Of a stretch of DNA of 64,000 bases, positions 35,763-64,000 are shown in pieces. This DNA comes from an uncultured Bacteroidales bacterium. GTDB lineage: Bacteria > Bacteroidota > Bacteroidia > Bacteroidales > UBA10428. Position numbers and translations under genes: made by a program. The notes under the pieces are model-generated. The model had not been told where the DNA came from. It did no database searches and saw only the letters and a list, made by a program, of their open reading frames with translations. The DNA lies in contig CAZLLD010000004.1 of NCBI GenBank assembly GCA_964560225.1, forward strand, positions 5,593 to 69,592, written 5' to 3'. How positions within the stretch are numbered: the first letter of the stretch is position 1; the number at the start of each line of letters is the position of its first letter.

Positions 35763-36920
35763 ATGAATTTTATTACCAGTAATTTAATAAGCGTAGTTTT
35801 GGCAAGCATTGCTGCTGCCTTACTTTTGAAAAGAGCATTTAAAAACTCTGTATTTATAAAGGTGGGCATCATTTGGTTGTTTAACCTTCTGTTTATCATG
35901 CTTACTGTTGGAGTCAAATACAAGTATTTTGACGGACATACGGGTATTAATATTTTAATTGCCGTGGGAAATATACTGGTCAGTATTGCGTGTTTCTTTT
36001 ATGGCGGTAAATTAGTAGTACGGCCCCTTTCAAGTGCTGTTGATAAGCTCGGAGAGTTGGCTGAAGGTAATCTTGATGTAAAAATTGAAAACTTTGGTGT
36101 TAACAAGACACATGACTTGGGACGATTAATTGTGGCCAGTGAAAAGATTAAAAAGAATCTTACCATGGTGGTATCGCAAATCAATGAAAATGTAAGCCAG
36201 CTGGATACCTCCGGGCAAAATTTGAATTCAGTATCAAAACAGTTGTCAGAAAGTACTTCGGAGTTATCTCTTTCTGTTGAACAGGTTTCCTCATCAATGC
36301 AGCAGATGACTGCCAATATTGAACAAAATAAAGTGAATGCGCAGCAAACCGGTTTGATCTCCACACATCTGTCAGAAAGTGTGCGATTAGTGGGCACTTC
36401 GTCAAAGGAAAGCCTGAACTCCATTCAGGTGATTGCAGATAAAATCAGCATCATCAACGACATTGCTTTTCAGACCAATCTGCTGGCTTTAAATGCAGCT
36501 GTAGAAGCCGCCCGGGCAGGAGATCAGGGAAGAGGCTTTGCTGTAGTGGCAGCAGAGGTGAGAAAATTGGCTGAAAGAAGCAAAACTGCCGCCGATGAGA
36601 TTGTGTCGCTCGCATCTGACAGTGTGCGCATTACTGAAAATTCCAGTCAGCTTCTTGATGCGCTGATACCCGAAATCATCAAAACTACCGGTATGGTGGA
36701 GGAAATCAGCGCATCCAGTCACGAGCAAGCGTCTGGTGCCAATATGATCAATGCAGCAGTGCAACAATTAAATAGTGTAACACGGCAGAACATTTCGGCC
36801 AGTGAAGAGATGGCCAATGGATCAGAAAGGCTTAACGAACTGGCTAAGCAATTACAGGATATTATTCAGTATTTCAAACTTGACGAGAATCAAGTGTCGA
36901 AAATAACTTCATCCAACTAA
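35763..36920 (+). CDS. Methyl-accepting chemotaxis protein (TM region, HAMP, MCP signalling domain)
   Basis: Highly conserved hairpin tip [39 protein letters not shown]. The N-terminus has hydrophobic helices. Confidence 0.85.
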
Positions 36921-36922
36921 AG

Positions 36923-38122
36923 TTACTCCTGCTGGTTCCGCCACAGGTTGGGCAGAAACCGGTAATAAAGCAGGTGGCGCCAGGTAGCCCAGTCGTGACC
37001 ACCCTTTCCGCCTACATAGTACTCATGTTTGATGTTGTGATTGATAAGTGCCTCATGCAAAGCGGTGCAACGCCTGCCCATAAATCCTTTGGCTTCTTCG
37101 GTTCCCTGGCCAACAAACAGGTAAGCTACTTTTTTGTTGACATCGGGGTCGTTCAGAAAACCGGCCAGTGATTTTTCTGCATCCACATCACCGGCACTCA
37201 GTATGCCGAAGGAGGCAAACAGGTCGAGTGACCGGAAGCCGACATACATGGAGTGTCTTCCACCCATTGACAAACCTGAAATAGCTCTTCCGCGGGGATC
37301 CTGCTGAACGCTGTAAGCTTTTTCAACTACAGGGATCACATGGTTCCGCAATTCTTTCTCAAAAATATCAAAGGTGAGTTCGGTATGTTTGGGATGGTTG
37401 CGGTGAATCACCTGGTTGTTGGGAATGGCGATCAGCATGGGAACGGCTTTGCCTTCGGCCAGCAGGTTGTCCATAATCAGGTTCACGCGGCCGTCGTATA
37501 CCCAGTTTGACGGCAATTCGCCGCTACCTCCAAGAAGATATAACACCGGGTATTTTTTAGCGGGATCATAACCCGGGGGAGTGTACACATACAATTCCCG
37601 TTCGCCACCGGTTACATCGGAATGATAAATATGCCTTGTGACATTTCCATGGGGTACGTTGCGGGCATCATAATAAGCCGGACCGTCGCCGTGAACAATC
37701 AGCTCACTGTATGGCGGCATGGCTGTAAAAGCTGCATAGGTATTGCTGGGATCAGCAACCTGCACGCCATCAATAATCAGGTGATAGGCATACATGTCGG
37801 GCTCAAGCGGGCCAATTGTTAACGTCCAGATACCATCGGTGCCTTTCGTAAAGGGCACCGGTTCATTTCCTTTTCCCAGTGCAGTCAGAATGGCAACGCC
37901 TGCTAGTTTTACTTCCTGCGCCATAGGAGATTTAACCCGAAATATGACGGTGCGGTCATCTTTCACTTCAGGTGAATTGATGGGTGCGCTGAAGGGGATC
38001 AGCCCTTCTGTATTCTTCTGGGGATTGTAATCGAGATTCACATTGGCCTGCTGCCCCGTGCACCAGGTTGAAATACTCATCAGGGCCACAACGCTCATGA
38101 TGAAAAGGTTGCTGATTTTCAT
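36923..38122 (-). CDS. Carbohydrate esterase (CE1-like 'putative esterase' fold with N-terminal Ig-like domain)
   Basis: Signal peptide, YPVLYLLGG, nucleophile elbow GLSMGG, C-terminal HDWATW. Confidence 0.8.
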   Translation of the reverse strand: MKISNLFIMSVVALMSISTWCTGQQANVNLDYNPQKNTEGLIPFSAPINSPEVKDDRTVIFRVKSPMAQEVKLAGVAILTALGKGNEPVPFTKGTDGIWTLTIGPLEPDMYAYHLIIDGVQVADPSNTYAAFTAMPPYSELIVHGDGPAYYDARNVPHGNVTRHIYHSDVTGGERELYVYTPPGYDPAKKYPVLYLLGGSGELPSNWVYDGRVNLIMDNLLAEGKAVPMLIAIPNNQVIHRNHPKHTELTFDIFEKELRNHVIPVVEKAYSVQQDPRGRAISGLSMGGRHSMYVGFRSLDLFASFGILSAGDVDAEKSLAGFLNDPDVNKKVAYLFVGQGTEEAKGFMGRRCTALHEALINHNIKHEYYVGGKGGHDWATWRHLLYYRFLPNLWRNQQE

Positions 38123-38300: not shown

Positions 38301-40631
<2,331 letters not shown>

Positions 40632-40654: not shown

Positions 40655-43600
40655 TCATTTCAATCCGGAACCTGTTATCCGGAAATAATCAAATCCAACT
40701 TCAAAGGGTTTTTCAGGCGCCTGGTCATTCTGTTGCATCATTCTGGCAAAACGGGCCATTTGAGCAGGCAAAACACCATTGCAGGCAATCACACCGGCTT
40801 TGATATCTTTCAACACGACATGAGCTTCTCCGATGATTTCAAATTTGCCTCCATCAGTTGCATAATAAGCAGTATAATAGGCTCCTTTTTTAACCAATTT
40901 AAGAATCAGTGTATTATCACCTTTAATAATTCCATCCATAGTAACAGAAACGGAATATGTTTGATAATCTTTGTTTTCTACTGAAAGCTCAACAATTCCG
41001 GGTTGTTCACCTGATCCGGCGGGCCTTTGCGCTCCCCTGCGGCCTACATTCGCCCTGTACACCAATTTAACAAAGTTGTCATCGTCCTGATAAGCAATGA
41101 CTCCTGCATTTTCAGTAAAACCGGCAGGTTTTCGGGAGCTCGAAATTTTTGATTCAATGGTCCAGTCGGAATTGGCACTTTGCAGTAACAGGTTTCTGGC
41201 ATTGTTTGCCGATGTGGAGACATCTCCTTCTTCACTGGTAATGATAAGCTTTCCGCCTGCCGCATCAAATCTTCTGTTGGCCGGATTTTCGCGTACCCAG
41301 ATCCATGGGTTGCCTGTTATGTTGCTGTTGAATTCATCGCTGAGGGGCTTGATTCCAAAATTCAGCACATATTCCTTCTGGTCACATGAAATTGGATCGA
41401 TCAGTTTGATCGTTGCTGTTCCCGGAATGGATTCAGGTTGGGTGATTTCCGTAATCATACCAGGGTCAACGGGAGTGGCTCTAATAACAGGGATCTTTGA
41501 AGATGAGCTCACCAGATAACTGTATTGTACGGTATTCGGATTGAATCCTTTTACAGGTTTGTTATTAATGGTTACTGAAGTTAAGTTTAAGTCGGGCATC
41601 ACCTTAACCGGGAAATCGTCTGATACCGTTATGTCATTGATGGTTACGGCAGCAGTTATGGTTGCAACACCGATTCCTGCAGCAGTAACCAGGCCTTTTT
41701 GATCGACAGTAGCAACAGAAGGATTATTGGAGGTATAGACAACCCGGGCCTTCGAGATATCATAAAAATAATCATCAGTCATGGCAGCAGTTACATTGGT
41801 TTGGGAACTGTATCCTTTTCTGAAAACAACAGCACCGCAATCAGCAACAACTGTTTTCAGAACAGGTGTCAATGTTCCTTTCATGACAGCACTTACCGTT
41901 CCTTTGACGTCTTTTGAAGATGTCCCTATTTCGAAAATATAGTTGCCCTGGTCGTAAGTGATCTTGTTTTCTTTCATGTCCCAAAACCACAAATCGGCAC
42001 AATCGATCGGGATGGTCACTGTCTTGGTCTGACCCGCAGGTATGGTTACCCGCTTAAAGCCTTTCAGCCTTTTTATCGGACGTTGCAGTGAAGCAGGGCT
42101 TTCGGGTGTGCGCATGTAAATCTGAACTACTTCATCACCAGCATAATTCCCGGCATTTTTAACATCCACACTAATGGTTATTTGATCCTGCGGTGTGATG
42201 GTATTCCGGTCGATTTTGAAATTGCCGTATTCAAAGCTGGTATATGAAAGTCCGTACCCGAATTCATAGGAAACCTCTTTGTCGAAATACCAGAATGTGC
42301 GCCCGTTTTTGTTATTACCTCCCCTGAGAGTATAATCGGTAATAGGGGGGAGGTCATTAACCGATTTGTACCAGCTGGCATTGAGCTTTCCTCCCGGATT
42401 GACAGCTCCAAAAAGAATTTCGGCAATGGCATCGCCCTGTGCCTGCCCGTTGTAACCGGTCCAGATGATTCCGGGAATGTTTGGCAGGTTTTTGAATTCC
42501 TCAACCTCAACACATCCGAGTGTTTGCATCACAACAACCGTATTGGGATTAACAGCAGCTATCGCTTTAATCAGTTCAACCTGGTTGCCCGGAAGCAGGA
42601 GTGTCAGTCTGTCGGATTCTTCAGTGGCTGTTTTTTCATCGGTTCCCACAAAAACCACAGCCACATCTGCAGAAGCTGCTATTTCTATGGTATTCTTGTC
42701 AATTTCCTTATCGGGGGCAGCTCTGTAAACCAGGTATAGAGTCTGGGGCTCGTTCAGTCCCAGCTTATTGACTTTTGTTTTCATCAGCGTGCCCAGGCCA
42801 TAAACGCCTCCCGGCCTGACTCCTGCTTCAACGGTAGCATTCAGGGTAGCGAGCAGATTTCCTTCAGGCGAGCCAACTCTCAATTCAACCAATCCGCCAT
42901 CAATGGGTATATTCAGACTGATCCCGATGGTATCCGTGGTGGTCAGGTCGATGTTCTCATAAGCAGTCCACGAACCGTCATTGATGGTTCTCACCTGCTC
43001 TTCTGCGCCCATACCCGATCCTACAGTGATTCCGCTGGAGCAGGAGCTGAATTTGGTGGCATCGTATTTGGAAACAGAACCGTTTGAATTGATCAGTTGA
43101 AAGCCGGCCACGTAAAACAGGTTGCTTTTGTTGGCGGTACTGCCTCCGGAACTGAATATGACTTCAGTTGACAAACCCTTTTCTGATACATACTTCTTGA
43201 TCCCTGCCAGGGGAGATACCATATTTTCCTGTGACGGTCTCCCCGAATAGGGTCCAAGCACCACTTTATCGGCCTGGGGGCCAATAAGTGCCAGTTTTTT
43301 AACGTTTTCCGGATTCAGGGGAAGTATTTTTTTGCTGGTTTTTACACTGGTATTGTTCTTCAGCAAAACAGGCGTTTTGGTAGCAATTTCTTTTGCCAGC
43401 AATTTGTTTGCCGGTGATCCAATGAGCGCAGACTGGGTAAGTGCATAGGGAACTTTTGAAGGCGGGTCAAATTCACCCAGCCGCATCCTGATAACAAACA
43501 TGTTTAACAGTGCTTTGTCAATATCGGCCATGGAAATCAGGCCTTTGTTGAGGGCATCGATGGTACTTGACTGGTAAACACTTCCGCAGTCGCAGTCGAC

Positions 43601-44521
43601 TCCGGCTTTCAGGCCTTCGGCCGTAGCTTCAGGTGCGGTTTTAACATAGTAATGACCGGTATAGATGTCTTCGATGGCTGCACAATCGCCGGTAACGTAC
43701 CCTTTCATTCCATAGGTTCTTCTGGCGATAGTATCGAGATACAGTTTGCTGGCCGACGTAGGAACCCCGTTCACCGCATTGTAGGAAGTCATGATAGAGG
43801 GGAGGTTGTCTTTTTCAATCAGATCCTTGTAAGGTGCCAGGTAATACTCCCTCATATCGCGGCTGTCCATATTGGAACTGCTAACATGCCGGTCGAACTC
43901 GCTGTTGTTGGCAAAGAAATGCTTGCCACAGGGAACCGTCTTTAAGTAATCGGGATCGCTTCCCATCATACCTCTGATAAAACCACCTGCAATTTGCGAA
44001 ACCAGAAAAGGGTCTTCTCCATATGATTCACCAGTGCGTCCCCAGCGTGGATCTCTGATAGGTTCTACCACAGGAGACCAATAGGTTAATCCGTTAATAA
44101 CCGGTGAATTCAGAGCCCTTGCTTCATCAGAAATTGCCCGGGTTTCCCTTTCCATTAGTTCCGGGTCCCATGCCGATCCCAATGCAACGCTGTTCGGAAA
44201 GGATGTAGGCGAACCTGTGCCAGGTGCCATGCCGAATCCGCCCATGACACCATGAAGGGCCTCGTTCCAGACATTAAAAGCATTAATTCCCAGCCGGGGT
44301 ACGGCAGCCATGCTGTTTCCCAAAAGACTTTCTTTTTCTTCCAAGGTGAGCCTTGAAACCAGGTCAGCAGCTCTTTCTTCAAAAGAATAGGCCGTGTTCA
44401 GGTAAATAGGTATGGTGGACCCCCTGCCTTCAGGTTCACCGGTTTTGTATGCTGTCAACGTGAAAACAACCGTTATTAGAGCGATAGCCATGATACGTTG
44501 ATCAAGAAACCTTTTTTTCAT
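40655..44521 (-). CDS. Glycoside hydrolase family 3 (beta-xylosidase/glucosidase-like) with CBM6-like insertion, Fn3-like, Big_2, cadherin-like and ConA-like C-terminal modules
   Basis: GH3 blocks RDPRWGRTGESYGEDPFL and KGYVTGDCAAIE (nucleophile Asp). INDGSWTAYENIDL (CBM6-like). VVQIYMRTP...KRLKGFKRV (GH3 Fn3-like). YTSNNPSVATVDQKGLVTAAGIGVATI (Big_2). C-terminal NAGVIAYQDDDNFVKLVY (ConA/LamG-like). Confidence 0.9.
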   Translation of the reverse strand: MKKRFLDQRIMAIALITVVFTLTAYKTGEPEGRGSTIPIYLNTAYSFEERAADLVSRLTLEEKESLLGNSMAAVPRLGINAFNVWNEALHGVMGGFGMAPGTGSPTSFPNSVALGSAWDPELMERETRAISDEARALNSPVINGLTYWSPVVEPIRDPRWGRTGESYGEDPFLVSQIAGGFIRGMMGSDPDYLKTVPCGKHFFANNSEFDRHVSSSNMDSRDMREYYLAPYKDLIEKDNLPSIMTSYNAVNGVPTSASKLYLDTIARRTYGMKGYVTGDCAAIEDIYTGHYYVKTAPEATAEGLKAGVDCDCGSVYQSSTIDALNKGLISMADIDKALLNMFVIRMRLGEFDPPSKVPYALTQSALIGSPANKLLAKEIATKTPVLLKNNTSVKTSKKILPLNPENVKKLALIGPQADKVVLGPYSGRPSQENMVSPLAGIKKYVSEKGLSTEVIFSSGGSTANKSNLFYVAGFQLINSNGSVSKYDATKFSSCSSGITVGSGMGAEEQVRTINDGSWTAYENIDLTTTDTIGISLNIPIDGGLVELRVGSPEGNLLATLNATVEAGVRPGGVYGLGTLMKTKVNKLGLNEPQTLYLVYRAAPDKEIDKNTIEIAASADVAVVFVGTDEKTATEESDRLTLLLPGNQVELIKAIAAVNPNTVVVMQTLGCVEVEEFKNLPNIPGIIWTGYNGQAQGDAIAEILFGAVNPGGKLNASWYKSVNDLPPITDYTLRGGNNKNGRTFWYFDKEVSYEFGYGLSYTSFEYGNFKIDRNTITPQDQITISVDVKNAGNYAGDEVVQIYMRTPESPASLQRPIKRLKGFKRVTIPAGQTKTVTIPIDCADLWFWDMKENKITYDQGNYIFEIGTSSKDVKGTVSAVMKGTLTPVLKTVVADCGAVVFRKGYSSQTNVTAAMTDDYFYDISKARVVYTSNNPSVATVDQKGLVTAAGIGVATITAAVTINDITVSDDFPVKVMPDLNLTSVTINNKPVKGFNPNTVQYSYLVSSSSKIPVIRATPVDPGMITEITQPESIPGTATIKLIDPISCDQKEYVLNFGIKPLSDEFNSNITGNPWIWVRENPANRRFDAAGGKLIITSEEGDVSTSANNARNLLLQSANSDWTIESKISSSRKPAGFTENAGVIAYQDDDNFVKLVYRANVGRRGAQRPAGSGEQPGIVELSVENKDYQTYSVSVTMDGIIKGDNTLILKLVKKGAYYTAYYATDGGKFEIIGEAHVVLKDIKAGVIACNGVLPAQMARFARMMQQNDQAPEKPFEVGFDYFRITGSGLK

Positions 44522-49331: not shown

Positions 49332-50876
49332 ATGAAAAGAACACTTTTAGCATGCCTTTTGTTTGTATGGGCTGCAGTACAAACACCCTTAACGGCGCAG
49401 CCTGTTACCATTGTGTTGAACGCAGATTTATCCACGGATACAATCAGCCGGCACATTTACGGACATTTCTCGGAGCATCTGGGACATTGTATCTATGGTG
49501 GGATCTGGGTGGGAGAGAACTCTGCCATACCTAACACCAGGGGAATCCGGAATGATGTGGTTGCTGCACTGAAGCGTCTGCACATTCCGAATCTGCGTTG
49601 GCCGGGTGGTTGTTTTGCCGACGAGTATCACTGGATGGACGGCATTGGCCCGCGCGAAAACAGGCCTAAAATGATCAATACACATTGGGGCGGGGTAGTG
49701 GAAGACAATAGTTTTGGAACCCATGAATTTCTGGATCTTTGCGAGCAGGTGGGAACTGAGCCTTATATTTGCGGGAACCTGGGCAGCGGATCGGTTGAAG
49801 AACTTTCAAAATGGGTTGAATACATGACTTTCGACGGAAAAAGCCCGATGTCCGATCTGCGTCGAAAAAACGGTCGTGAAGAACCCTGGAAGGTGAAATT
49901 TCTGGGAGTCGGGAACGAGAACTGGGGTTGCGGTGGCAACATGACAGCCGAGTTCTATGCCGACCAGTACAAACGCTATGCCACTTATACCCGGAATTAT
50001 GGAGCCAACAAGCTCTATCGCATAGCCGGCGGACCCAGTTCGGAGGATTATCACTGGACAGAAACACTGATGAAGAATGTGCCCCTGAACCTGATGAACG
50101 GACTCTCACTGCACCATTATACCATCACTCATAACTGGACTTATAAGGGCTCTGCCACCCAGTTTACCGAGGAAGAGTATTTCAGCACCATCAAAAGCAC
50201 ACTGGTGATGGACGAGCTTGTTACCCGCCATTCAACCGTTATGGATCAGTATGATCCGAAGAAAAGTGTGGGTCTGATTGTGGATGAATGGGGTACCTGG
50301 TTTGACGTGGAACCCGGAACCAATCCCGGATTCCTGTTTCAGCAAAACACCATGAGGGATGCCTTGGTGGCCGGAATTAACCTGAACATCTTCAACAACC
50401 ATGCCGACCGGGTTAAGATTGCCAACATTGCACAGATGGTGAATGTGCTGCAGGCCATTCTGTTCACAGAAGGCGATAAACTGGTGCTCACCCCCACATT
50501 CTATGTTTTTGAGATGTACAAGGTTCATCAGGATGCTGCCCTCATACCGGTCACTTTCAAATCACCCGAATATGTGCTGAATGGGAAGTCAGTTCCGGCA
50601 GTCACTGCTTCCGCATCGCGCGATAAAGCCGGAAAGGTTCATATAACAATTACCAATGCCGATCCACATAAGGAGATTGAACTGAATCTGGATCTGCGGG
50701 CATATAAACCTGCAGGTATTTCAGGAACGGTGCTTGCGGCAAAAGAGTTGTCGCAGCACAATACCTTCGCCAACCCGGAGGTAGTAAAATCGGTTCCGTT
50801 TAAAGGATTTAAGCTGAATAAGGAAACGGTGAACGTGAAGTTGCCTGCAGCTTCGGTGGTGATGTTGGAGTTGTAA
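49332..50876 (+). CDS. abfA: GH51 alpha-L-arabinofuranosidase
   Basis: Signal peptide, [24 protein letters not shown] (acid/base Glu), IVDEWGTW (nucleophile Glu). Confidence 0.9.
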
Positions 50877-57460: not shown

Positions 57461-57904
57461 ATGGTAATATTTGAGGACCAATCAGTTAGATTAGAATTTA
57501 TGGAAAACGTCCCCTGCATCGTTTGGCAACCGCTGAAGTACATTTCGGGCGAGGGCTGGAGAAAACCTTTTCAGGTAGGGATGGATTTCATGGAAGAAAA
57601 GATCAAGTCGATCCCCAACCTGGGATGGATTAATGATGCTCGTCTTTTAAAGGTAGTTAAGCCGGATGATTTGTTATGGCTTAACAAAAATGTGAATGAC
57701 CGGGCTTACAATTTTGGAGCCAAGAAAGTGGCATTTGTTTTACCGGAAAGCACCTTCGGCAAGCTGGCTGTGAAAACTTACGCGGATTTTACCAACCGGA
57801 GAACCGACAATAAGTTTCAGATAAAAGCGTTTATATCTATTGACGAAGCAAAAAAGTGGATTGGCTCTGAAGTGAGCGTTGATTCCAATGAAGTGAATCT
57901 TTGA
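57461..57904 (+). CDS. Hypothetical protein (147 aa)
   Basis: Clean ORF with a candidate promoter. No family was confidently recognised (possibly a SpoIIAA/STAS-like fold). Confidence 0.5.
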   Translation: MVIFEDQSVRLEFMENVPCIVWQPLKYISGEGWRKPFQVGMDFMEEKIKSIPNLGWINDARLLKVVKPDDLLWLNKNVNDRAYNFGAKKVAFVLPESTFGKLAVKTYADFTNRRTDNKFQIKAFISIDEAKKWIGSEVSVDSNEVNL

Positions 57905-58080
57905 TATCTTCATTTTCCTACCTGAAATACCCTACACACCCTGACGCTGAACCGTAGGTTCAACCAGGTCAAGGTACACCAAGCCCAAACAAATATCCCT
58001 TAGCTAATCAGATCCCAACCCTGGTCTGGTATGCAAAAGCCGTGTTCAGGACAAACAAATTGTTCTGAAGGATGTTATTT

Positions 58081-58125
58081 GTATTGTATTGTATTGTATT
58101 GTGTTGTATTGTGTTGTGTTGTGTT
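58081..58125. repeat. Pentanucleotide tract (GTATT)4 GTGTT GTATT (GTGTT)3, with degenerate extension 58074..58155
   Basis: gtattgtattgtattgtattgtgttgtattgtgttgtgttgtgtt. It ends 55 bp upstream of the megasynthase ATG. Confidence 0.85.
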
Positions 58126-58179
58126 GATTTGAAGTTGTGTTGATGTGTATTGGATTAGGTTAAATTAATTTATAGTAAA

Positions 58180-61100
58180 ATGAAAAATGTTAAGTTGAAT
58201 CCGCTGGAAAGAAATGGCGACATAGCGGTAGTCGGATTGGGGTGTTATTATCCCGGCGCTAAATCACCGTTGGAATTGTGGGAAAATATTCTGGCACGAC
58301 GCCAGCAGTTCAGAAAAATGCCGGATGTGAGGCTTCCCAACAGTGAGTATTTTAATCCGGATCCTGTGGTTCCGAACAAAACTTATCAGAACAAGGCGGC
58401 AGTGATTGAAGGCTATGAGTTCGACTGGATGGGGAAACGCATTCCCAGGCAGACCTATGAAAGTACCGATATCGTTCATTGGCTGGCGCTTGATACGGCA
58501 CTGCAGGCAATTGCAGATACCGGTTTCGACAAGGACAGCATACCTAAAGAAAAAACAGGAGTTATTTTGGGCAATACACTCACCGGGGAGTTTACGCGAT
58601 CGAACCAGATGTTGCTGCGCTGGCCATATGTCAGAAAGGCATTAAAAGCCTCTGCTGCACAAAAGGGGCTCACACATGTTCTCGGTGAACTGGAAGGTGC
58701 CATGGAATCTTATTATAAATCGGTATTTGCACCGGTTACCGAGGATACCCTGGCAGGCGGTTTGGCGAATACCGTCGCCGGAAGAATTTGCAATTACCTT
58801 GATTTGCATGGAGGAGGATATATCGTTGACGGAGCTTGTTCTTCATCGTTACTGGCAGTTGTAACGGCCGCCAATTACCTGGAATCGGGACAAATGGATA
58901 TGGTTATTGCCGGAGGCGTGGATATCAGTCTGGATACTTTCGAACTCGTCGGATTCGCCAAGACCCGCGCGCTTACTCCTGATGAAATGCGGGTTTATGA
59001 CAAGGGAGGTAAGGGGTTCTTGCCCGGTGAGGGTTGTGGAATGGTTATTCTGAAAAGACTTGAAGATGCCATCAAAGACAATGATCAGATATATGCCGTG
59101 GTGAAAGGGTGGGGAATTTCTTCCGACGGTAAGGGGGGTATTACAGCGCCCAGTGCGGCAGGACAGTCGAGGGCGCTGATTCGTGCCCATGAAAAGGCCG
59201 GCCTCAATCCTGAAAATCTTGATTTCATCGAAGGCCATGGAACCGGAACTACTGTTGGGGATAAGGTGGAACTGGAGGGAATCTCCATTGCCCTTAATCA
59301 TAAAGAAAAATTGCCACCCCGGAGTTGTGGTGTTACCTCATTCAAATCAATTGTGGGTCATACCAAGGCTGCTGCCGGTATCGGGGCATTCATCAAAACA
59401 GTAATGGCTTTGAACCGCAGGGTGCTGCCGCCTACGGCAGGCCTGAAAGACCTTAATGACATTTTTGAAGAAAAGGCTCAAACGGTTTACCCAATTATTC
59501 ACGGGCAGGTGCGGGATTCCGGAAGCACATTGATAGCTGGAGTTTCTGCAATGGGCTTTGGTGGCATTAACAGTCATGTGGTCGTGCAATCCGGAACCAG
59601 TCCAAATCCCAAATTGAATCCGGGCTTGCCTGAAAGCAAGCTCATGGTGTCCAATCAAACTCATGAATTGTATTTGTTCTCTGCGGGCAGCCGCAATGAA
59701 TTGATTGAGGGTTTGAAGCAGTTTCAACAGAAAGCCTCAGGCATGAGTTACGCCGAAATGGCCGACCTTGCGTTCCATAACAATCTGCAAACCAACAGCG
59801 ATAAACAATTCAGGGCTGCAATGGTAGCTCATACTCCTTTTGAACTCGACAGGAAGATAGAAACGCTTATGGAGCAGGTTGGGAAGTGGAATGAAACAGA
59901 CCCGATTTCTCTTGAAAACAATTCCATTTCATTGGGCCGAAAAAAGAAAAATCCTGTAATCGGTGCCTTATTCCCGGGTCAGGGTTCACAAAAACTGAAC
60001 ATGACTTACAAACTTGTTGAACGTCATAACTGGATACGGGAAACGGTAAACAAGGCCTCAGAACTTTTTAATTCCTGCGGATCTGACCAGGTACTATCTT
60101 CTGTTTTTAAGACCACGGACAGGGCTGCCGACAAACAGGAGGTTGCTTCCTGGATGAACCGGCTCAAGCAGACCCAAATTGCACAACCTGCAATTACCCT
60201 TGCCTCACTGGTTTGGTACAAATTTATTGAACAGCTTGGTATTCCAATTAATTATGTCTCAGGTCATAGTTTGGGCGAACTGATGGCCTTTTATGCAGCC
60301 GGATTGTTGAGTGAAGAAACCCTGCTTCGTTTTGCTGCTTTTCGCGGTAAATCGATGGCTGAATTCGGCTCGGGGACCATGGCCAGTTTGGCATGCAATA
60401 AGGACCGGGTTGAGAAATACCTAAAGGAAGTTGATGGCTATGTTACCATTGCCAATATCAATGCACCGGAACAAATTGTCATCAGCGGCGATGCCGATAG
60501 TGTGCGAATGGTGATCGCCCTCGCAGCAAAAGATCAGGTGAATGCCATAGAACTCCCGGTTTCCGCAGCATTTCATTCGAAATTGGTGGCTGAGGTAGCC
60601 GAAGAAATAATTAAATATGACCAATTGAAGGTTGCAGGTCCGGGAAAGAATTCTATAAAGCTGATCAGCAGTGTCAGCGGTAAAGAGATTGATGAAGCCG
60701 TGGATTTAAATGCCTATTTTTCAACTCAGGCCGTTCATCAGGTTGATTTTATCAGTGTGGTCAAGCATCTCGAGGAGCAATGCGATTTGCTGATTGAAAT
60801 TGGACCCGGCAAGGTGTTGAGTGGTTTGGTTTCCAATATATCAGATAAAATCAAGGCATTCCCGGTTGAATTGAATTCCGCTGACGACTTTTCGTGGAAT
60901 ATTATGCTTGCCAACACCTTTGTGCTGGGGTGCGAAATCAGCATTCATGAAATATACAAAAACAGACTGATCAGAGATTTTACTCCGGCTCACGAAAAGA
61001 AATTTTTGGTGAACCCGTTGGAGCGTCCTTTCCCCGATGAACCTGCAATGACCGAAAATGATCTTACCTCCGGAATCGGAGCACTTCTGGGTTTTGGCAA

Positions 61101-64000
61101 TGCCGATCCGGCATTCAACGACTACCTGAAACTGAGAAGTGACTTCATCAAACAAGTGGTTGATGCGGATTATAAATTCTTCAGCAACAGGAAAAGCAAT
61201 TTCACGGAGCCGAACCCAACAACCGGAATTCATACCGGGGCAACTGGTGTTGCGAAGGCAGTACCTGCATCTTCACCTGCTCAAGCCGATTCAGGCATAA
61301 AAGATGCGCTTTATAAAAAGATTGAGTCGATGACTGGTTTTTCTGCCGATGGCTTCAGGGATGACATGAAACTTCTTGACGACTTTAACCTGGATAGCAT
61401 CAAGTCAGGTTCTCTGCTTGCCGGATTGTTGAAAAGCATAAATGCAACCGGCAAAGTCAATACGTCGGAATTTTCCAATGCATCATTGGGAGAAATTGTC
61501 AGTAAGCTGAACAAGCTGGTTCCTGAGCAACAACAGGCGACAGCTGTCCCTGCTGCCGCTGTACCAGATAAGCCGCAGAAAAATATCTCCGATATAATCA
61601 ACAGCATTCTGGCTGAAAGAACAGGATTTCCTAAAGACAGCATTCAACCTGATTTCAAATTGCTGGATGATCTGAACCTGGACAGTATAAAGGCGGGTTC
61701 GTTTGTGGCCGAAATCTCAAAACAGTTCGGAATACAAGGAAAGATTGGCGCTTCAAAAGTTGCCAATGCCAAGGTTGAGGATTTGGTAAGGATGGTTAGT
61801 GAACTGGTTTCAGAAAACCCGGTTCCCAACAGCAAGTCAGATGAATTGTCAAATCAAGACAATTGGGTTAATGCGTATTCAGTGAAGCTAACCGAATCTC
61901 CTTCAGCAGTTACCCAACAGGCAGCGATGGAATTCTGGAAGAACAAAAGCATCGTGGTTGTTCACCATGCCGAAGATGAGAAAGTTGCTGCCAGCCTGGG
62001 CCAGGTTTTGAAATCAAGGATTTCCAAAGTGATTTCAGTTAAGAGCAAAGATTTACCTATGCTGCATTCACTTGAAAATGCTTGTTTTTTAGTTTTGTTA
62101 CCCGATTTGGCTATTAATGGCAAAAATACTGAACAGATTGTTTCCCTTCTGGCTGATGTAGCCGGGAATATGAGTGAGGTATCCATGGTGGGTTTTGTGC
62201 AGCATAACGATGGTTGTTTTTCAAGAAATGTACGGATGCCTGCAGAATCAAAAGCGGCATACAGTGCGGTTGGTTTTGCTGCGAGCGTGCATCATGAAAG
62301 GCCGGATATGAGGATACGGGTTGTTGAGGTGAGCCGGAAACTTCCGGTGGAATTGATACCGGATATCTTCATGAATGAATTTGCAACTGAAGAATCCTTT
62401 ATGACTGCGGGATATGACGCTGATTTGGTAAGACGCCGCATGCAATATGAGCCTGCCGTCACCGGTAAATTGCTGAAAGAATATGGTGGTTTTATAGATG
62501 AAAATGATGTGGTTGTGGCTACCGGTGGAGCCAAGGGAATCACGGCTGAATGCGTATTTTCATTGGTCCAAAAATACAAATGCAGGATTGCTCTTGTAGG
62601 TAGTTCTCCTGAAAACGATGAAGTCAGGAATACCCTGTCAAGGTATACAGCCTCGGGTCTTACAGCCCGGTATTTTGCCTGTGATATCAGCAACGAGGCA
62701 CAGGTTAATGAATTAATTTTCAAAATTCAGGAAAGTCTGGGCAAGGTTACGGCATTAATTCACGGAGCCGGAAGAAATATTCCGCGAAGGGCTGAGCAGG
62801 TGACGGCCGGTGAGGCAATGAATGAAATAGCACCCAAACTTAAAGGAGCAATTAATTTGCTGCATGCGCTTAAGGGCAATCAGCTGAAGCATGTTGTTGC
62901 CCTCACCTCCATTATTGGGGTTACCGGCATGCCGGGCAACAGCTGGTATGCTTTTTCAAATGAAACACTCGATCTTTTGCTTAGAGCTTTTAGCAACAGC
63001 AAAAATTGCAGAACAAGAACCCTGGCTTACAGTATTTGGGATGAAGTAGGAATGGGAGCCCGCATGGGCAGCACAAAAGTGCTTGCCGGAATGGGCATTG
63101 GTTCTATTGCACCATCCCTGGGTGTGGAGCAATTTCTGCGCTGGTTTGAACATGAAAACAGCGACCAGCAGGTAGTTATTTCCTCGCGTATGGGAGGCCT
63201 CGATACCTGGTACCAGGCTACACCGAAATTGTCTGAGGCCAGAAGGTATATCTCCGATATCAGGCACCTGGAGCAGGGAAAGGAATTAACCACGCGGGTA
63301 AGACTGAACCGTAAGGATGATCTTTATATTGACGATCACAATTACAACGGTTCACTGCTGTTCCCTACGGTATTCGGACTTGAAGCCATGGCGCAGGCTG
63401 CCTGCCTGCTGGCCGGGGCCGAAAAAGTCAATCATCTTGTTTTTGAAAATGTTTCACTGCTCAGGCCGATTGTGGTGCCTGAAACAGGAGATATGGAAGT
63501 TGAAATTACTGCGCGTGTCATGGAAGGAACGGTTAATTCGGACCAGCCGGTCAGGATATTTGCCGGAATCACCACGGAATATGCAGAAACGGGTTTTAAT
63601 AGTTTCTCTGCCGAGATCATTATCGGAACAAAGTCTGAGGCAATCCAAAAAACCATTGAACTGCGTGAAGCGCCATTGAAAATAAGTCCCGAAAGTGATT
63701 TGTACACCTGGTTGTTGTTCCAGGGACCTAGGTTCAGGAACATCAGCAAAGTGTATGATTTGAGCAAGGAAAGTGTCACCTTCACTGCAAGTGCGGTTCA
63801 AAAAGATCCTGCCGAAGCATGTTTTTCGGAATCGTGCCGGTCACCCTTGCTCCTTGGAAGCCCGTTGTTCAGGGATATCCTGTTGCAATCGGTACAGCTC
63901 TTCCTAACCGGTAAAAAGTATTTGCCGGTCGGAATCAAACGTTGGGAGATCCATGATATCGCCCGACAATTCAATGGGGGTACAATTAAAAGCATCCTGA
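58180..64000 (+). CDS. Type I polyketide / PUFA-synthase-like megasynthase, PfaA-type (KS-AT-ACP-ACP-KR-DH), C-terminus beyond the window
   Basis: My manual translation from ATG 58180 found no stop through 63999 (1,940 codons). Motifs and residues:
- KS: IAVVGLGCYYPGA, DGACSSS (Cys220), EGHGTGT (His353), GHTKAAAG (His394), GFGGINSH.
- AT: FPGQGSQ, GHSLGE (Ser697), AAFHS.
- Two ACPs: DDFNLDSIKS (Ser1073) and DDLNLDSIKA (Ser1169).
- KR: ATGGAKGIT (1447-1455) and YAFSN (Tyr1590).
- DH: HNYNGSLLFP (His1720, HxxxGxxxxP).
It is absent from the ORF track because no stop lies in the window. Confidence 0.9.
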   Translation, partial: MKNVKLNPLERNGDIAVVGLGCYYPGAKSPLELWENILARRQQFRKMPDVRLPNSEYFNPDPVVPNKTYQNKAAVIEGYEFDWMGKRIPRQTYESTDIVHWLALDTALQAIADTGFDKDSIPKEKTGVILGNTLTGEFTRSNQMLLRWPYVRKALKASAAQKGLTHVLGELEGAMESYYKSVFAPVTEDTLAGGLANTVAGRICNYLDLHGGGYIVDGACSSSLLAVVTAANYLESGQMDMVIAGGVDISLDTFELVGFAKTRALTPDEMRVYDKGGKGFLPGEGCGMVILKRLEDAIKDNDQIYAVVKGWGISSDGKGGITAPSAAGQSRALIRAHEKAGLNPENLDFIEGHGTGTTVGDKVELEGISIALNHKEKLPPRSCGVTSFKSIVGHTKAAAGIGAFIKTVMALNRRVLPPTAGLKDLNDIFEEKAQTVYPIIHGQVRDSGSTLIAGVSAMGFGGINSHVVVQSGTSPNPKLNPGLPESKLMVSNQTHELYLFSAGSRNELIEGLKQFQQKASGMSYAEMADLAFHNNLQTNSDKQFRAAMVAHTPFELDRKIETLMEQVGKWNETDPISLENNSISLGRKKKNPVIGALFPGQGSQKLNMTYKLVERHNWIRETVNKASELFNSCGSDQVLSSVFKTTDRAADKQEVASWMNRLKQTQIAQPAITLASLVWYKFIEQLGIPINYVSGHSLGELMAFYAAGLLSEETLLRFAAFRGKSMAEFGSGTMASLACNKDRVEKYLKEVDGYVTIANINAPEQIVISGDADSVRMVIALAAKDQVNAIELPVSAAFHSKLVAEVAEEIIKYDQLKVAGPGKNSIKLISSVSGKEIDEAVDLNAYFSTQAVHQVDFISVVKHLEEQCDLLIEIGPGKVLSGLVSNISDKIKAFPVELNSADDFSWNIMLANTFVLGCEISIHEIYKNRLIRDFTPAHEKKFLVNPLERPFPDEPAMTENDLTSGIGALLGFGNADPAFNDYLKLRSDFIKQVVDADYKFFSNRKSNFTEPNPTTGIHTGATGVAKAVPASSPAQADSGIKDALYKKIESMTGFSADGFRDDMKLLDDFNLDSIKSGSLLAGLLKSINATGKVNTSEFSNASLGEIVSKLNKLVPEQQQATAVPAAAVPDKPQKNISDIINSILAERTGFPKDSIQPDFKLLDDLNLDSIKAGSFVAEISKQFGIQGKIGASKVANAKVEDLVRMVSELVSENPVPNSKSDELSNQDNWVNAYSVKLTESPSAVTQQAAMEFWKNKSIVVVHHAEDEKVAASLGQVLKSRISKVISVKSKDLPMLHSLENACFLVLLPDLAINGKNTEQIVSLLADVAGNMSEVSMVGFVQHNDGCFSRNVRMPAESKAAYSAVGFAASVHHERPDMRIRVVEVSRKLPVELIPDIFMNEFATEESFMTAGYDADLVRRRMQYEPAVTGKLLKEYGGFIDENDVVVATGGAKGITAECVFSLVQKYKCRIALVGSSPENDEVRNTLSRYTASGLTARYFACDISNEAQVNELIFKIQESLGKVTALIHGAGRNIPRRAEQVTAGEAMNEIAPKLKGAINLLHALKGNQLKHVVALTSIIGVTGMPGNSWYAFSNETLDLLLRAFSNSKNCRTRTLAYSIWDEVGMGARMGSTKVLAGMGIGSIAPSLGVEQFLRWFEHENSDQQVVISSRMGGLDTWYQATPKLSEARRYISDIRHLEQGKELTTRVRLNRKDDLYIDDHNYNGSLLFPTVFGLEAMAQAACLLAGAEKVNHLVFENVSLLRPIVVPETGDMEVEITARVMEGTVNSDQPVRIFAGITTEYAETGFNSFSAEIIIGTKSEAIQKTIELREAPLKISPESDLYTWLLFQGPRFRNISKVYDLSKESVTFTASAVQKDPAEACFSESCRSPLLLGSPLFRDILLQSVQLFLTGKKYLPVGIKRWEIHDIARQFNGGTIKSIL

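Follow-up and report, generated by a model that had tools for sequence, protein, structure and literature searches.

The stretch analysed here, 64,000 nt of contig CAZLLD010000004.1 from an uncultured Bacteroidales bacterium (hereafter the window), ends inside a very large forward-strand gene. A first-pass annotation, made from the letters alone, had read this gene as a megasynthase resembling PfaA, and had claimed that the frame from ATG 58180 stays open to the window end. That claim was confirmed: the frame has 1,940 codons and zero stops up to the last full codon of the window. Because an in-frame TAG lies at 58156-58158, ATG 58180 is the first ATG after a stop; the same start methionine, from which we number the product, is used by an 83%-identical ortholog and by the database gene call P0001. 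The frame is missing from the list of open reading frames because those running off the end of the source go unlisted. P0001, recovered by homology search, is the window's own product, complete at 2,546 amino acids (aa) on an 86 kb contig, and its residues 1-1940 are identical to the window frame. The synthase gene is cut by the window edge, not by the genome, and a further 606 residues lie beyond that edge.

Pfam and NCBIfam matches, together with two hot-dog halves at the C-terminus, give the architecture ketosynthase (KS)-acyltransferase (AT)-acyl carrier protein (ACP)-ACP-ketoreductase (KR)-dehydratase (DH)-phosphopantetheinyl transferase (PPTase)-thioesterase (TE)-TE, without an enoyl reductase (ER) domain (Table 1). 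The first six of these domains had been named in the first-pass annotation and were all recovered. Pfam placed KS at 14-422, AT at 597-880, PP-binding at 1142-1205, KR at 1446-1621 and PKS_DH_N at 1700-1781 on the window frame, and the first ACP was recognised by its identity to the second. Every catalytic residue and motif that had been listed was found where it had been placed: Cys220, His353 and His394 of the KS, GHSLGE and AAFHS of the AT, LDSIK in each of the two ACPs, TGGAKGIT and YxxxN of the KR, and HxxxGxxxxP of the DH.

Table 1. Coordinates of the synthase, its domains and its upstream partner
Feature	Position	Strand	Basis or remark
First 1,940 codons of a 2,546-aa protein, predicted iterative type I polyketide synthase of the enediyne synthase (PKSE) type	58180..64000	+	open frame; runs off window
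Ketosynthase, aa 14-470, Cys220/His353/His394	58219..59589	+	PF00109, PF02801
Malonyl-type acyltransferase, aa 597-880, GHSLGE (Ser697), AAFHS (His799)	59968..60819	+	PF00698
Carrier domain ACP1, aa ~1040-1112, LDSIK Ser1073	61297..61515	+	40% identity to ACP2
Carrier domain ACP2, aa ~1136-1210, LDSIK Ser1169	61585..61809	+	PF00550
KR catalytic subdomain, aa 1444-1621, TGGAKGIT 1448-1455, YAFSN 1590-1594	62509..63042	+	PF08659
PKS-type DH, N-terminal part, aa 1700 onward, HNYNGSLLFP 1720-1729	63277..64000	+	PF21089; window edge cuts domain
Predicted PPTase and two hot-dog TE domains	P0001 aa ~1991-2546, past window edge	+	Pfam, NCBIfam, profile alignment
147-aa partner, predicted SpoIIAA/STAS-like fold	57461..57904	+	conserved neighbour; AF2/Foldseek

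In an alignment of 63 full-length relatives, to which all counts of this kind refer, eleven positions are invariant or nearly so: Cys220, His353, His394, Ser697, His799, Ser1169, Tyr1590, Asn1594, His1720, Gly1724 and Pro1729. The KS triad is kept in 63/63 relatives, as is the serine of ACP2; the AT pair Ser697 and His799, the KR pair Tyr1590 and Asn1594, and His1720 and Pro1729 of the DH are likewise invariant. The serine of ACP1 is present in 46/63, and the whole ACP1 domain is missing in 13/63; the enediyne synthase SgcE has no equivalent of it. The best solved match to ACP2 is the ACP of the enediyne synthase CalE8 (2l9f, E 3.6e-5). A structural KR subdomain of ~210 aa precedes the catalytic one, and the KR aligns with that of SgcE, while the DH is 33.6% identical to the SgcE DH. 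Searches of solved structures with the KS N-terminus, AT and KR-DH regions returned generic polyketide synthase (PKS) or FabD matches that do not discriminate between families. The top matches of the AT are FabD-like; the DynE8 structure entries, which span the AT alone, rank ~41st among its matches.

Beyond the window edge, Pfam detected a weak ACPS match (2091-2147, E 0.034) and a 4HBT_2 domain (2420-2529). The NCBIfam AcpT model matches the ACPS stretch with E 3e-6, and the stretch is 30% identical to the PPTase of SgcE, including the GxDxE and WxxxE motifs. These read GCDIE (2091-2095) and WCLKE (2135-2139) here; the Asp of the first and Glu2139 of the second are each kept in 62/63 relatives. 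On the strength of its motifs and of its match to a hidden Markov model (HMM), this part of the protein is a predicted Sfp/AcpT-type PPTase. The separate downstream PPTase gene that the first-pass annotation had expected is instead, like the thioesterase, fused to the C-terminus of the synthase.

The thioesterase itself is double. Residues 2231-2375, between the PPTase and 4HBT_2, form a second hot-dog, a homologue of the C-terminal hot-dog by hhalign (99.3%, E 7e-21), and residues 2231-2546, modelled with AlphaFold2 (AF2; pLDDT 86.4), match double hot-dog acyl-ACP/acyl-CoA thioesterases over their full length. When the C-terminal hot-dog was searched as a single sequence against solved structures, only DynE7, SgcE10 and CalE7, the 'ACP-polyene' thioesterases of the enediyne E10 family, were matched (E 2e-8 to 9e-8). 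With a profile of the TE family the same three led (CalE7 1e-24, SgcE10 7e-23, DynE7 1e-20), followed by a non-enediyne thioesterase at 3e-4. An E10 protein encoded on its own in a Streptomyces enediyne cluster matches both fused TE halves in relatives, and in two of the Streptomyces cassettes that we retrieved a separate E10 gene directly follows the PKSE gene. The fusion therefore joins genes that are neighbours in enediyne clusters.

For the active site, the catalytic residues of CalE7 are reportedly Asn19, Tyr29 and Arg37 (Kotaka 2009), with residue numbers taken here from the profile alignment. Asn19 corresponds to Asn2419 (Asn in 58/63 relatives) and Tyr29 to Tyr2429 (Tyr in 63/63). Opposite Arg37 stands Met2437, and just 22/63 relatives have Arg there. 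In the N-terminal TE half, Arg2256-Glu2257 stands at the same W+5/W+6 spacing in 60/63 relatives. This complementary decay of the two halves would fit a pseudo-dimer with one composite active site, a plausible though unproven arrangement. The kinship with the E10 thioesterases CalE7, DynE7 and SgcE10 is a specific one, extending from the sequence and the hot-dog fold to the equivalents of Asn19 and Tyr29. The differences are that E10 is a free homo-oligomer encoded by a separate gene, whereas the synthase carries two tandem copies of the domain, fused to it as a putative pseudo-dimer, and that in this family the N-terminal copy retains the Arg37 equivalent and the C-terminal one is variable there.

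The family to which the synthase belongs was the main point in dispute. The first-pass annotation had preferred PfaA, that is, one subunit of a multi-protein synthase of polyunsaturated fatty acids (PUFA) or 'secondary lipids' with PfaB/C/D partners downstream, and had named an enediyne PKSE-like and a heterocyst-glycolipid (HglE-like) enzyme as alternatives. All are related: PUFA and enediyne KS domains are akin and form one broad superclade (Calteau 2014, PMC4247773). In keeping with PfaA, TIGR02813 PfaA is the best NCBIfam model for the synthase, with a match spanning KS-AT. At 583.3 bits for P0001 and 586.1 for the window fragment, however, the score falls below the curated cutoff of 1,010.1 bits. 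Genuine loci of the PfaA/HglE type, all of them truncated fragments, scored well above it: Parashewanella 3,078, Anabaenopsis (HglE-type) 1,734, a Proteobacteria metagenome-assembled genome (MAG) 1,700, and L049, the PfaA-type locus whose KS is closest to that of the synthase, 1,324. SgcE, a bona fide enediyne synthase, scores 456.5 bits. Because SgcE also matches the model, the PfaA signal of the synthase says no more than that PUFA and enediyne KS domains are, as is known, akin.

Direct comparison placed the synthase with the PKSEs. By BLASTP it is collinear with SgcE, residues 15-968 aligning with 4-933 at 41.8% identity and residues 1115-2144 with 920-1878 at 27.3%, through the C-terminal PPTase of SgcE. 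PfaA-type references were obtained by fishing genomes with the PUFA ACP motif LGIDSIKRVEI, which yielded 120 loci. The KS is 53% identical to the SgcE KS (496 bits), against 27-40% (149-291 bits) for 86 KS domains of the PfaA/HglE type. In a neighbour-joining KS tree rooted on FabF, which included four cassette-associated Streptomyces PKSE references of the 9-membered type, the family grouped with the PKSEs in 100/100 bootstraps and with PfaA in 0/100. The PKSEs are monophyletic and so is the family itself (100/100), which thus stands beside, not inside, the sampled PKSEs. A tblastn search of 72,556 plasmids with KS-AT returned a cyanobacterial relative first and then PKSEs in canonical enediyne cassettes, among them SgcE on the C-1027 plasmid of Streptomyces globisporus. 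Taken one at a time, the KS, the linker, the KR, the DH and the PPTase each give a higher score with PKSE than with PfaA types.

The carrier domains told less. The first-pass annotation had likened LDSIK to the IDSIK of PUFA synthases. At the level of the motif the likeness stands, and the tandem arrangement is shared with PfaA; a closer kinship to PfaA-type ACPs does not follow, since the ACPs score about equally against both types, the best solved match is from CalE8, and the motif here is (F/L)NLDSIK(S/A)GS rather than LGIDSIKRVEI. With HglE as with PfaA, the synthase shares the broad superclade for KS and AT, tandem ACPs and a KR followed by a PKS-type DH. PfaA has neither PPTase nor TE domains, both of which are fused here, and no partner PfaB (AT), PfaC (KS-chain length factor with a FabA-type DH) or PfaD (ER) was seen: genes for a KS-chain length factor, a FabA-type DH or an ER were absent from the window upstream and from 8-12 kb around nine relatives. 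The ortholog L001, whose sequence is collinear with the tail of the window at 82% nucleotide identity, continues instead with amidase, metallo-beta-lactamase and HAD genes. We give the PfaA reading almost no weight. The heterocyst-glycolipid alternative was rejected with it, the KS being just 36-37% identical to that of cyanobacterial tandem-ACP loci (L013, L033, L034) and the tested Anabaenopsis tandem-ACP locus (L034) passing the PfaA model. An ordinary modular PKS or nonribosomal peptide synthetase (NRPS) module was rejected too, because the KS falls in the PKSE/PUFA superclade and no other PKS/NRPS gene lies nearby in any context; here the first-pass annotation, which had preferred a PUFA/enediyne-type synthase to a modular PKS, was right.

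PKSEs carry KS-AT-ACP-KR-DH-PPTase in one polypeptide, without an ER (PMC9992847). Judged on sequence, the synthase is of this domain order, with one ACP and the C-terminal TE-TE as extras. It shares with SgcE, NcsE, CalE8 and DynE8 the iterative type I order without ER, a collinearity with SgcE over ~1,900 residues and a self-contained PPTase. It differs in the second ACP, in two fused E10-type TEs, in length (2,546 aa against 1,939), in forming its own clade and in its hosts, which are Bacteroidales and other non-actinomycete phyla. The earlier interpretation was thus only partly supported, because its secondary alternative, an enediyne PKSE-like enzyme, is the one that the KS tree, the collinearity with SgcE and the E10-type TE favour.

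These likenesses raise the question of whether the gene is a genuine enediyne PKSE, with which a Bacteroidales bacterium begins to build an enediyne natural product. The domain order, the collinearity, the E10-type thioesterase and the label 'enediyne polyketide synthase' that the Joint Genome Institute (JGI) gives to relatives would all suit such a role. Enediyne clusters are defined by the cassette E3/E4/E5/E/E10 (PMC5181780). We searched by tblastn (E <= 0.01) with E2-E5 of C-1027 (DUF1702 twice, CRTAC1/UnbV and UnbU). Neither the 64 kb window nor any of the six relatives' loci (L001-L005, L007) gave a match, while the positive controls L128-L130 were matched with E values from 1e-124 down to 0, and the gene tables of three further relatives list no cassette genes E2-E5. 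The context covered in this way comprises 58 kb upstream in the window, 10 kb downstream of L001 and the surroundings of eight other relatives, and no E3, E4 or E5 was found in it. The family is moreover a separate sister clade, monophyletic in all bootstraps; its neighbourhoods are wholly different between lineages. That the gene is a genuine enediyne PKSE is very improbable. Because E3/E4/E5 were not found, the polyene expected of such a synthase would be an end product, or the precursor of a lipid or pigment, rather than an enediyne core.

We consider it likely that the synthase is a stand-alone, self-priming and self-releasing iterative type I PKS of the enediyne-PKSE type that makes a linear conjugated polyene. 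Its domain identity and order, its conservation and its phylogeny follow from the sequence comparisons above; chain length, release chemistry and physiological role we infer from characterised systems. Characterised PKSEs phosphopantetheinylate themselves and then iterate KS, AT, KR and DH to a 3-hydroxy-hexadecahexaenoyl thioester (PMC9992847), which the E10 thioesterase frees as 1,3,5,7,9,11,13-pentadecaheptaene (PMC9992847). By analogy with these PKSE/E10 pairs, the fused PPTase domain would turn the synthase's own ACPs into their holo form. The KS, AT, KR and DH would then iterate malonyl units, without enoyl reduction, to an ACP-bound conjugated polyene thioester. Finally, the fused, putatively pseudo-dimeric TE would free the polyene, probably with decarboxylation, as a linear conjugated hydrocarbon, ketone or acid.

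One neighbour accompanies the synthase. The 147-aa protein encoded upstream is the only neighbour kept with it across Bacteroidales-type lineages, at 43-93% identity. It lies directly upstream on the same strand in L001, L002, L003 and L132, and one gene apart in L133; the five Bacteroidales-type loci examined, one of them labelled Caenarcaniphilales, all have it next to the synthase. It was not found in the four loci from other phyla (Scytonema, Laceyella, Gloeothece and Dyella). Its family comprises 54 clusters, all 'hypothetical', whose named members are all Bacteroidales; the protein has no significant Pfam match (best E-value 0.2), and PF11964 is weakly matched in two family members. The AF2 model of the partner (pLDDT 85.8) led Foldseek to 2q3l, SiaC, the STAS structure 4xs5 and SpoIIAA, with TM 0.55-0.69, E 3e-3 to 5e-2 and ~12% identity, so the modelled fold is of the STAS/SpoIIAA-like kind. 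The partner is possibly a regulator or a protein that binds the ACPs or the product. The STAS domain of an E. coli SLC26 protein has reportedly been crystallised bound to ACP, which makes ACP docking by the partner a lead rather than a result.

A gap of 275 bp separates the partner from the synthase, and an Rfam scan of it returned no RNA element. It contains a pentanucleotide microsatellite (TTGTA/TTGTG) of ~12.6 copies at 58079-58142, ending 38 bp before the synthase start codon. In the ortholog L001 the array is ~17 bp shorter, and more distant relatives lack it. Slippage in the microsatellite could vary expression of the synthase.

Other neighbours change with lineage. In L001 the synthase is followed by genes of the penicillin-amidase family, a metallo-beta-lactamase and HAD, and the same three follow a relative that is 61% identical. 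We rejected them as tailoring partners: none lies near more distant relatives, and the close relatives are broadly syntenic with the window. Since these genes are limited to close relatives that share general synteny, they were left out of the system. In the cyanobacteria, the Scytonema locus (HK-05; L004 16913-20287) has an RPE65 carotenoid oxygenase and an asparagine synthase beside the synthase. In Gloeothece PCC 7822 a carotenoid oxygenase follows three tryptophan-7-halogenase-like genes (L007 20767-26793). Together with the Scytonema locus, this suggests that those lineages cleave the polyene oxidatively or halogenate it. The Gloeothece verrucosa PCC 7822 synthase itself (plasmid Cy782201, L007 12001-20107) is split into two adjacent genes, one for KS-AT (1,022 aa) and one for the remainder (1,673 aa). 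In Dyella subtropica (L134 16295-21781) an af470-like monooxygenase, an FAD monooxygenase, a DJ-1/SnoaL fusion and two DUF4331 genes follow on the same strand, likely a lineage-specific tailoring set. At the Laceyella locus we recognised no pathway-related neighbour, and the flanking genes look unrelated.

These neighbours bear on a different account of the same enzyme class, in which the polyene is hydrolysed to a polyenoic or beta-hydroxy acid, or passed to a lipid or outer-membrane acceptor as a pigment or membrane lipid. The tandem hot-dog would then simply hydrolyse or transfer the chain, with the STAS-fold partner aiding delivery. The equivalent of CalE7 Arg37 is lost from the C-terminal TE half and kept in the N-terminal half only, so the release chemistry may differ from that of E10. 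Envelope-related or hydrolytic genes (Omp85, penicillin-amidase family, metallo-beta-lactamase, HAD) lie beside the closest relatives, and the carotenoid oxygenases, halogenases or monooxygenases beside the cyanobacterial and Dyella relatives imply that the polyene is further processed there. Yet the amidase, metallo-beta-lactamase and HAD genes are kept in the closest relatives only, where general genome synteny explains them, and no acyltransferase or ligase is conserved with the synthase. We regard this account as unlikely.

Several points weigh against a self-contained polyene synthase of the PKSE type with E10-like release. The AT and the ACPs do not favour PKSE, the AT giving 150 bits with the best PfaA-type AT and 135 bits with PKSE, a marginal difference. 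The KS tree holds just four closely related PKSE references of the 9-membered type. The downstream context comes from the 82%-identical ortholog L001 and not from the ~22 kb of the synthase's own contig past the window edge. The catalytic set of CalE7 is split between the TE halves, with Met in place of Arg37 in the C-terminal one. Chain length and release chemistry are extrapolated from actinomycete PKSE/E10 pairs across 53% (KS) and ~25-35% (TE) identity, and a trans-acting enoyl reductase is conceivable.

The family is widespread. With E <= 1e-3 a tandem-TE profile matched 908 cluster representatives, of which 329 pass E <= 1e-30. Among the best 150 matches the TE nearly always ends within ~35 residues of the C-terminus and the proteins are typically 2,100-2,900 aa; the exceptions, with an internal tandem TE, are P0187 (1,057 aa), P0220 (2,999 aa) and P0296 (573 aa). 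The 119 large homologs from the first search include 101 with a PPTase and ~65 with the tandem TE. Relatives with a named source include Bacteroidales MAGs, cyanobacteria (heterocystous ones and others), Thermoactinomycetaceae, Xanthomonadales (Dyella), and MAGs labelled Nitrospirota or Caenarcaniphilales; the cyanobacterial ones (Nostoc, Scytonema, Fischerella, Tolypothrix, Gloeothece) are 40-50% identical. An enediyne-type KS clade, with no product or function assigned, has been described in cyanobacteria (Calteau 2014, PMC4247773), where relatives of the synthase also occur. Many of the cyanobacterial proteins (~2,280 aa) differ from the synthase in having no tandem TE, and lie beside carotenoid oxygenases or halogenases. 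Our literature searches on PKSE-like synthases found no characterised member of the sister clade.

We also noted a recurrent class of proteins of ~342-350 aa (P0193, P0213, P0231, P0267, P0286, P0297, P0299, P0300) that consist of the tandem E10-type pair alone, starting at residue ~33-36. They may be double hot-dog thioesterases in their own right, or tails of synthases that have been split. Database names vary. Relatives are labelled 'enediyne polyketide synthase' in many JGI entries and 'SDR family oxidoreductase' by NCBI. One genuine PKSE is called 'SDR family NAD(P)-dependent oxidoreductase' in RefSeq, the same label as the Bacteroidales relatives (cassette loci L006 3917-9031, L128, L129). 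For UnbU/E5, RefSeq uses 'RnfABCDGE type electron transport complex subunit D' on the C-1027 plasmid and 'enediyne biosynthesis protein' elsewhere.

Elsewhere in the window, three consecutive minus-strand 'putative esterase' genes (36923-38122, 38301-39422 and 39429-40631) adjoin a gene for a 1,288-aa GH3/GH43-C/CBM6 protein (40655-44521), and an alpha-L-arabinofuranosidase gene lies at 49332-50876. Together these look like a locus for degrading hemicellulose (arabinoxylan, feruloyl esters), unrelated to the synthase. A 385-aa protein encoded at 35763-36920 has a methyl-accepting chemotaxis (MCP) signalling domain. Such a domain seems out of the ordinary in a genome of the Bacteroidales type.

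To our knowledge, PKSE enzymes have been known almost only as the first step of actinomycete pathways to enediyne antitumour antibiotics. Here a PKSE-type synthase with a built-in activator and releaser, as its domains predict, stands by itself in Bacteroidales genomes of gut or sediment type, as well as in several other phyla. For this clade automated labels mislead: 'enediyne polyketide synthase', 'SDR family oxidoreductase' and the PfaA HMM are each wrong or uninformative. As a wider proposal, possible rather than probable, the family may be a large branch of the PKSE lineage that makes no enediynes, consisting of single-polypeptide polyene factories that prime themselves and free their product through a fused, pseudo-dimeric E10 TE; the fused tandem TE occurs in at least 329 clusters (50% identity). 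In such a branch the physiological end product would be the free polyene or a lipid made from it, which in anaerobic Bacteroidales might serve, for instance, as a membrane antioxidant or as a pigment. Actinomycete enediyne pathways would be a later elaboration, and the Bacteroidales-specific STAS-fold partner a new accessory protein, docking on the ACPs or handling the hydrophobic product. Overall, these data point to an unrecognised class of bacterial conjugated-polyene products, and to a widespread, unstudied one-gene polyene system in unexpected hosts, whose enzymology can be predicted from PKSE and which would offer a one-gene polyene route for expression work.

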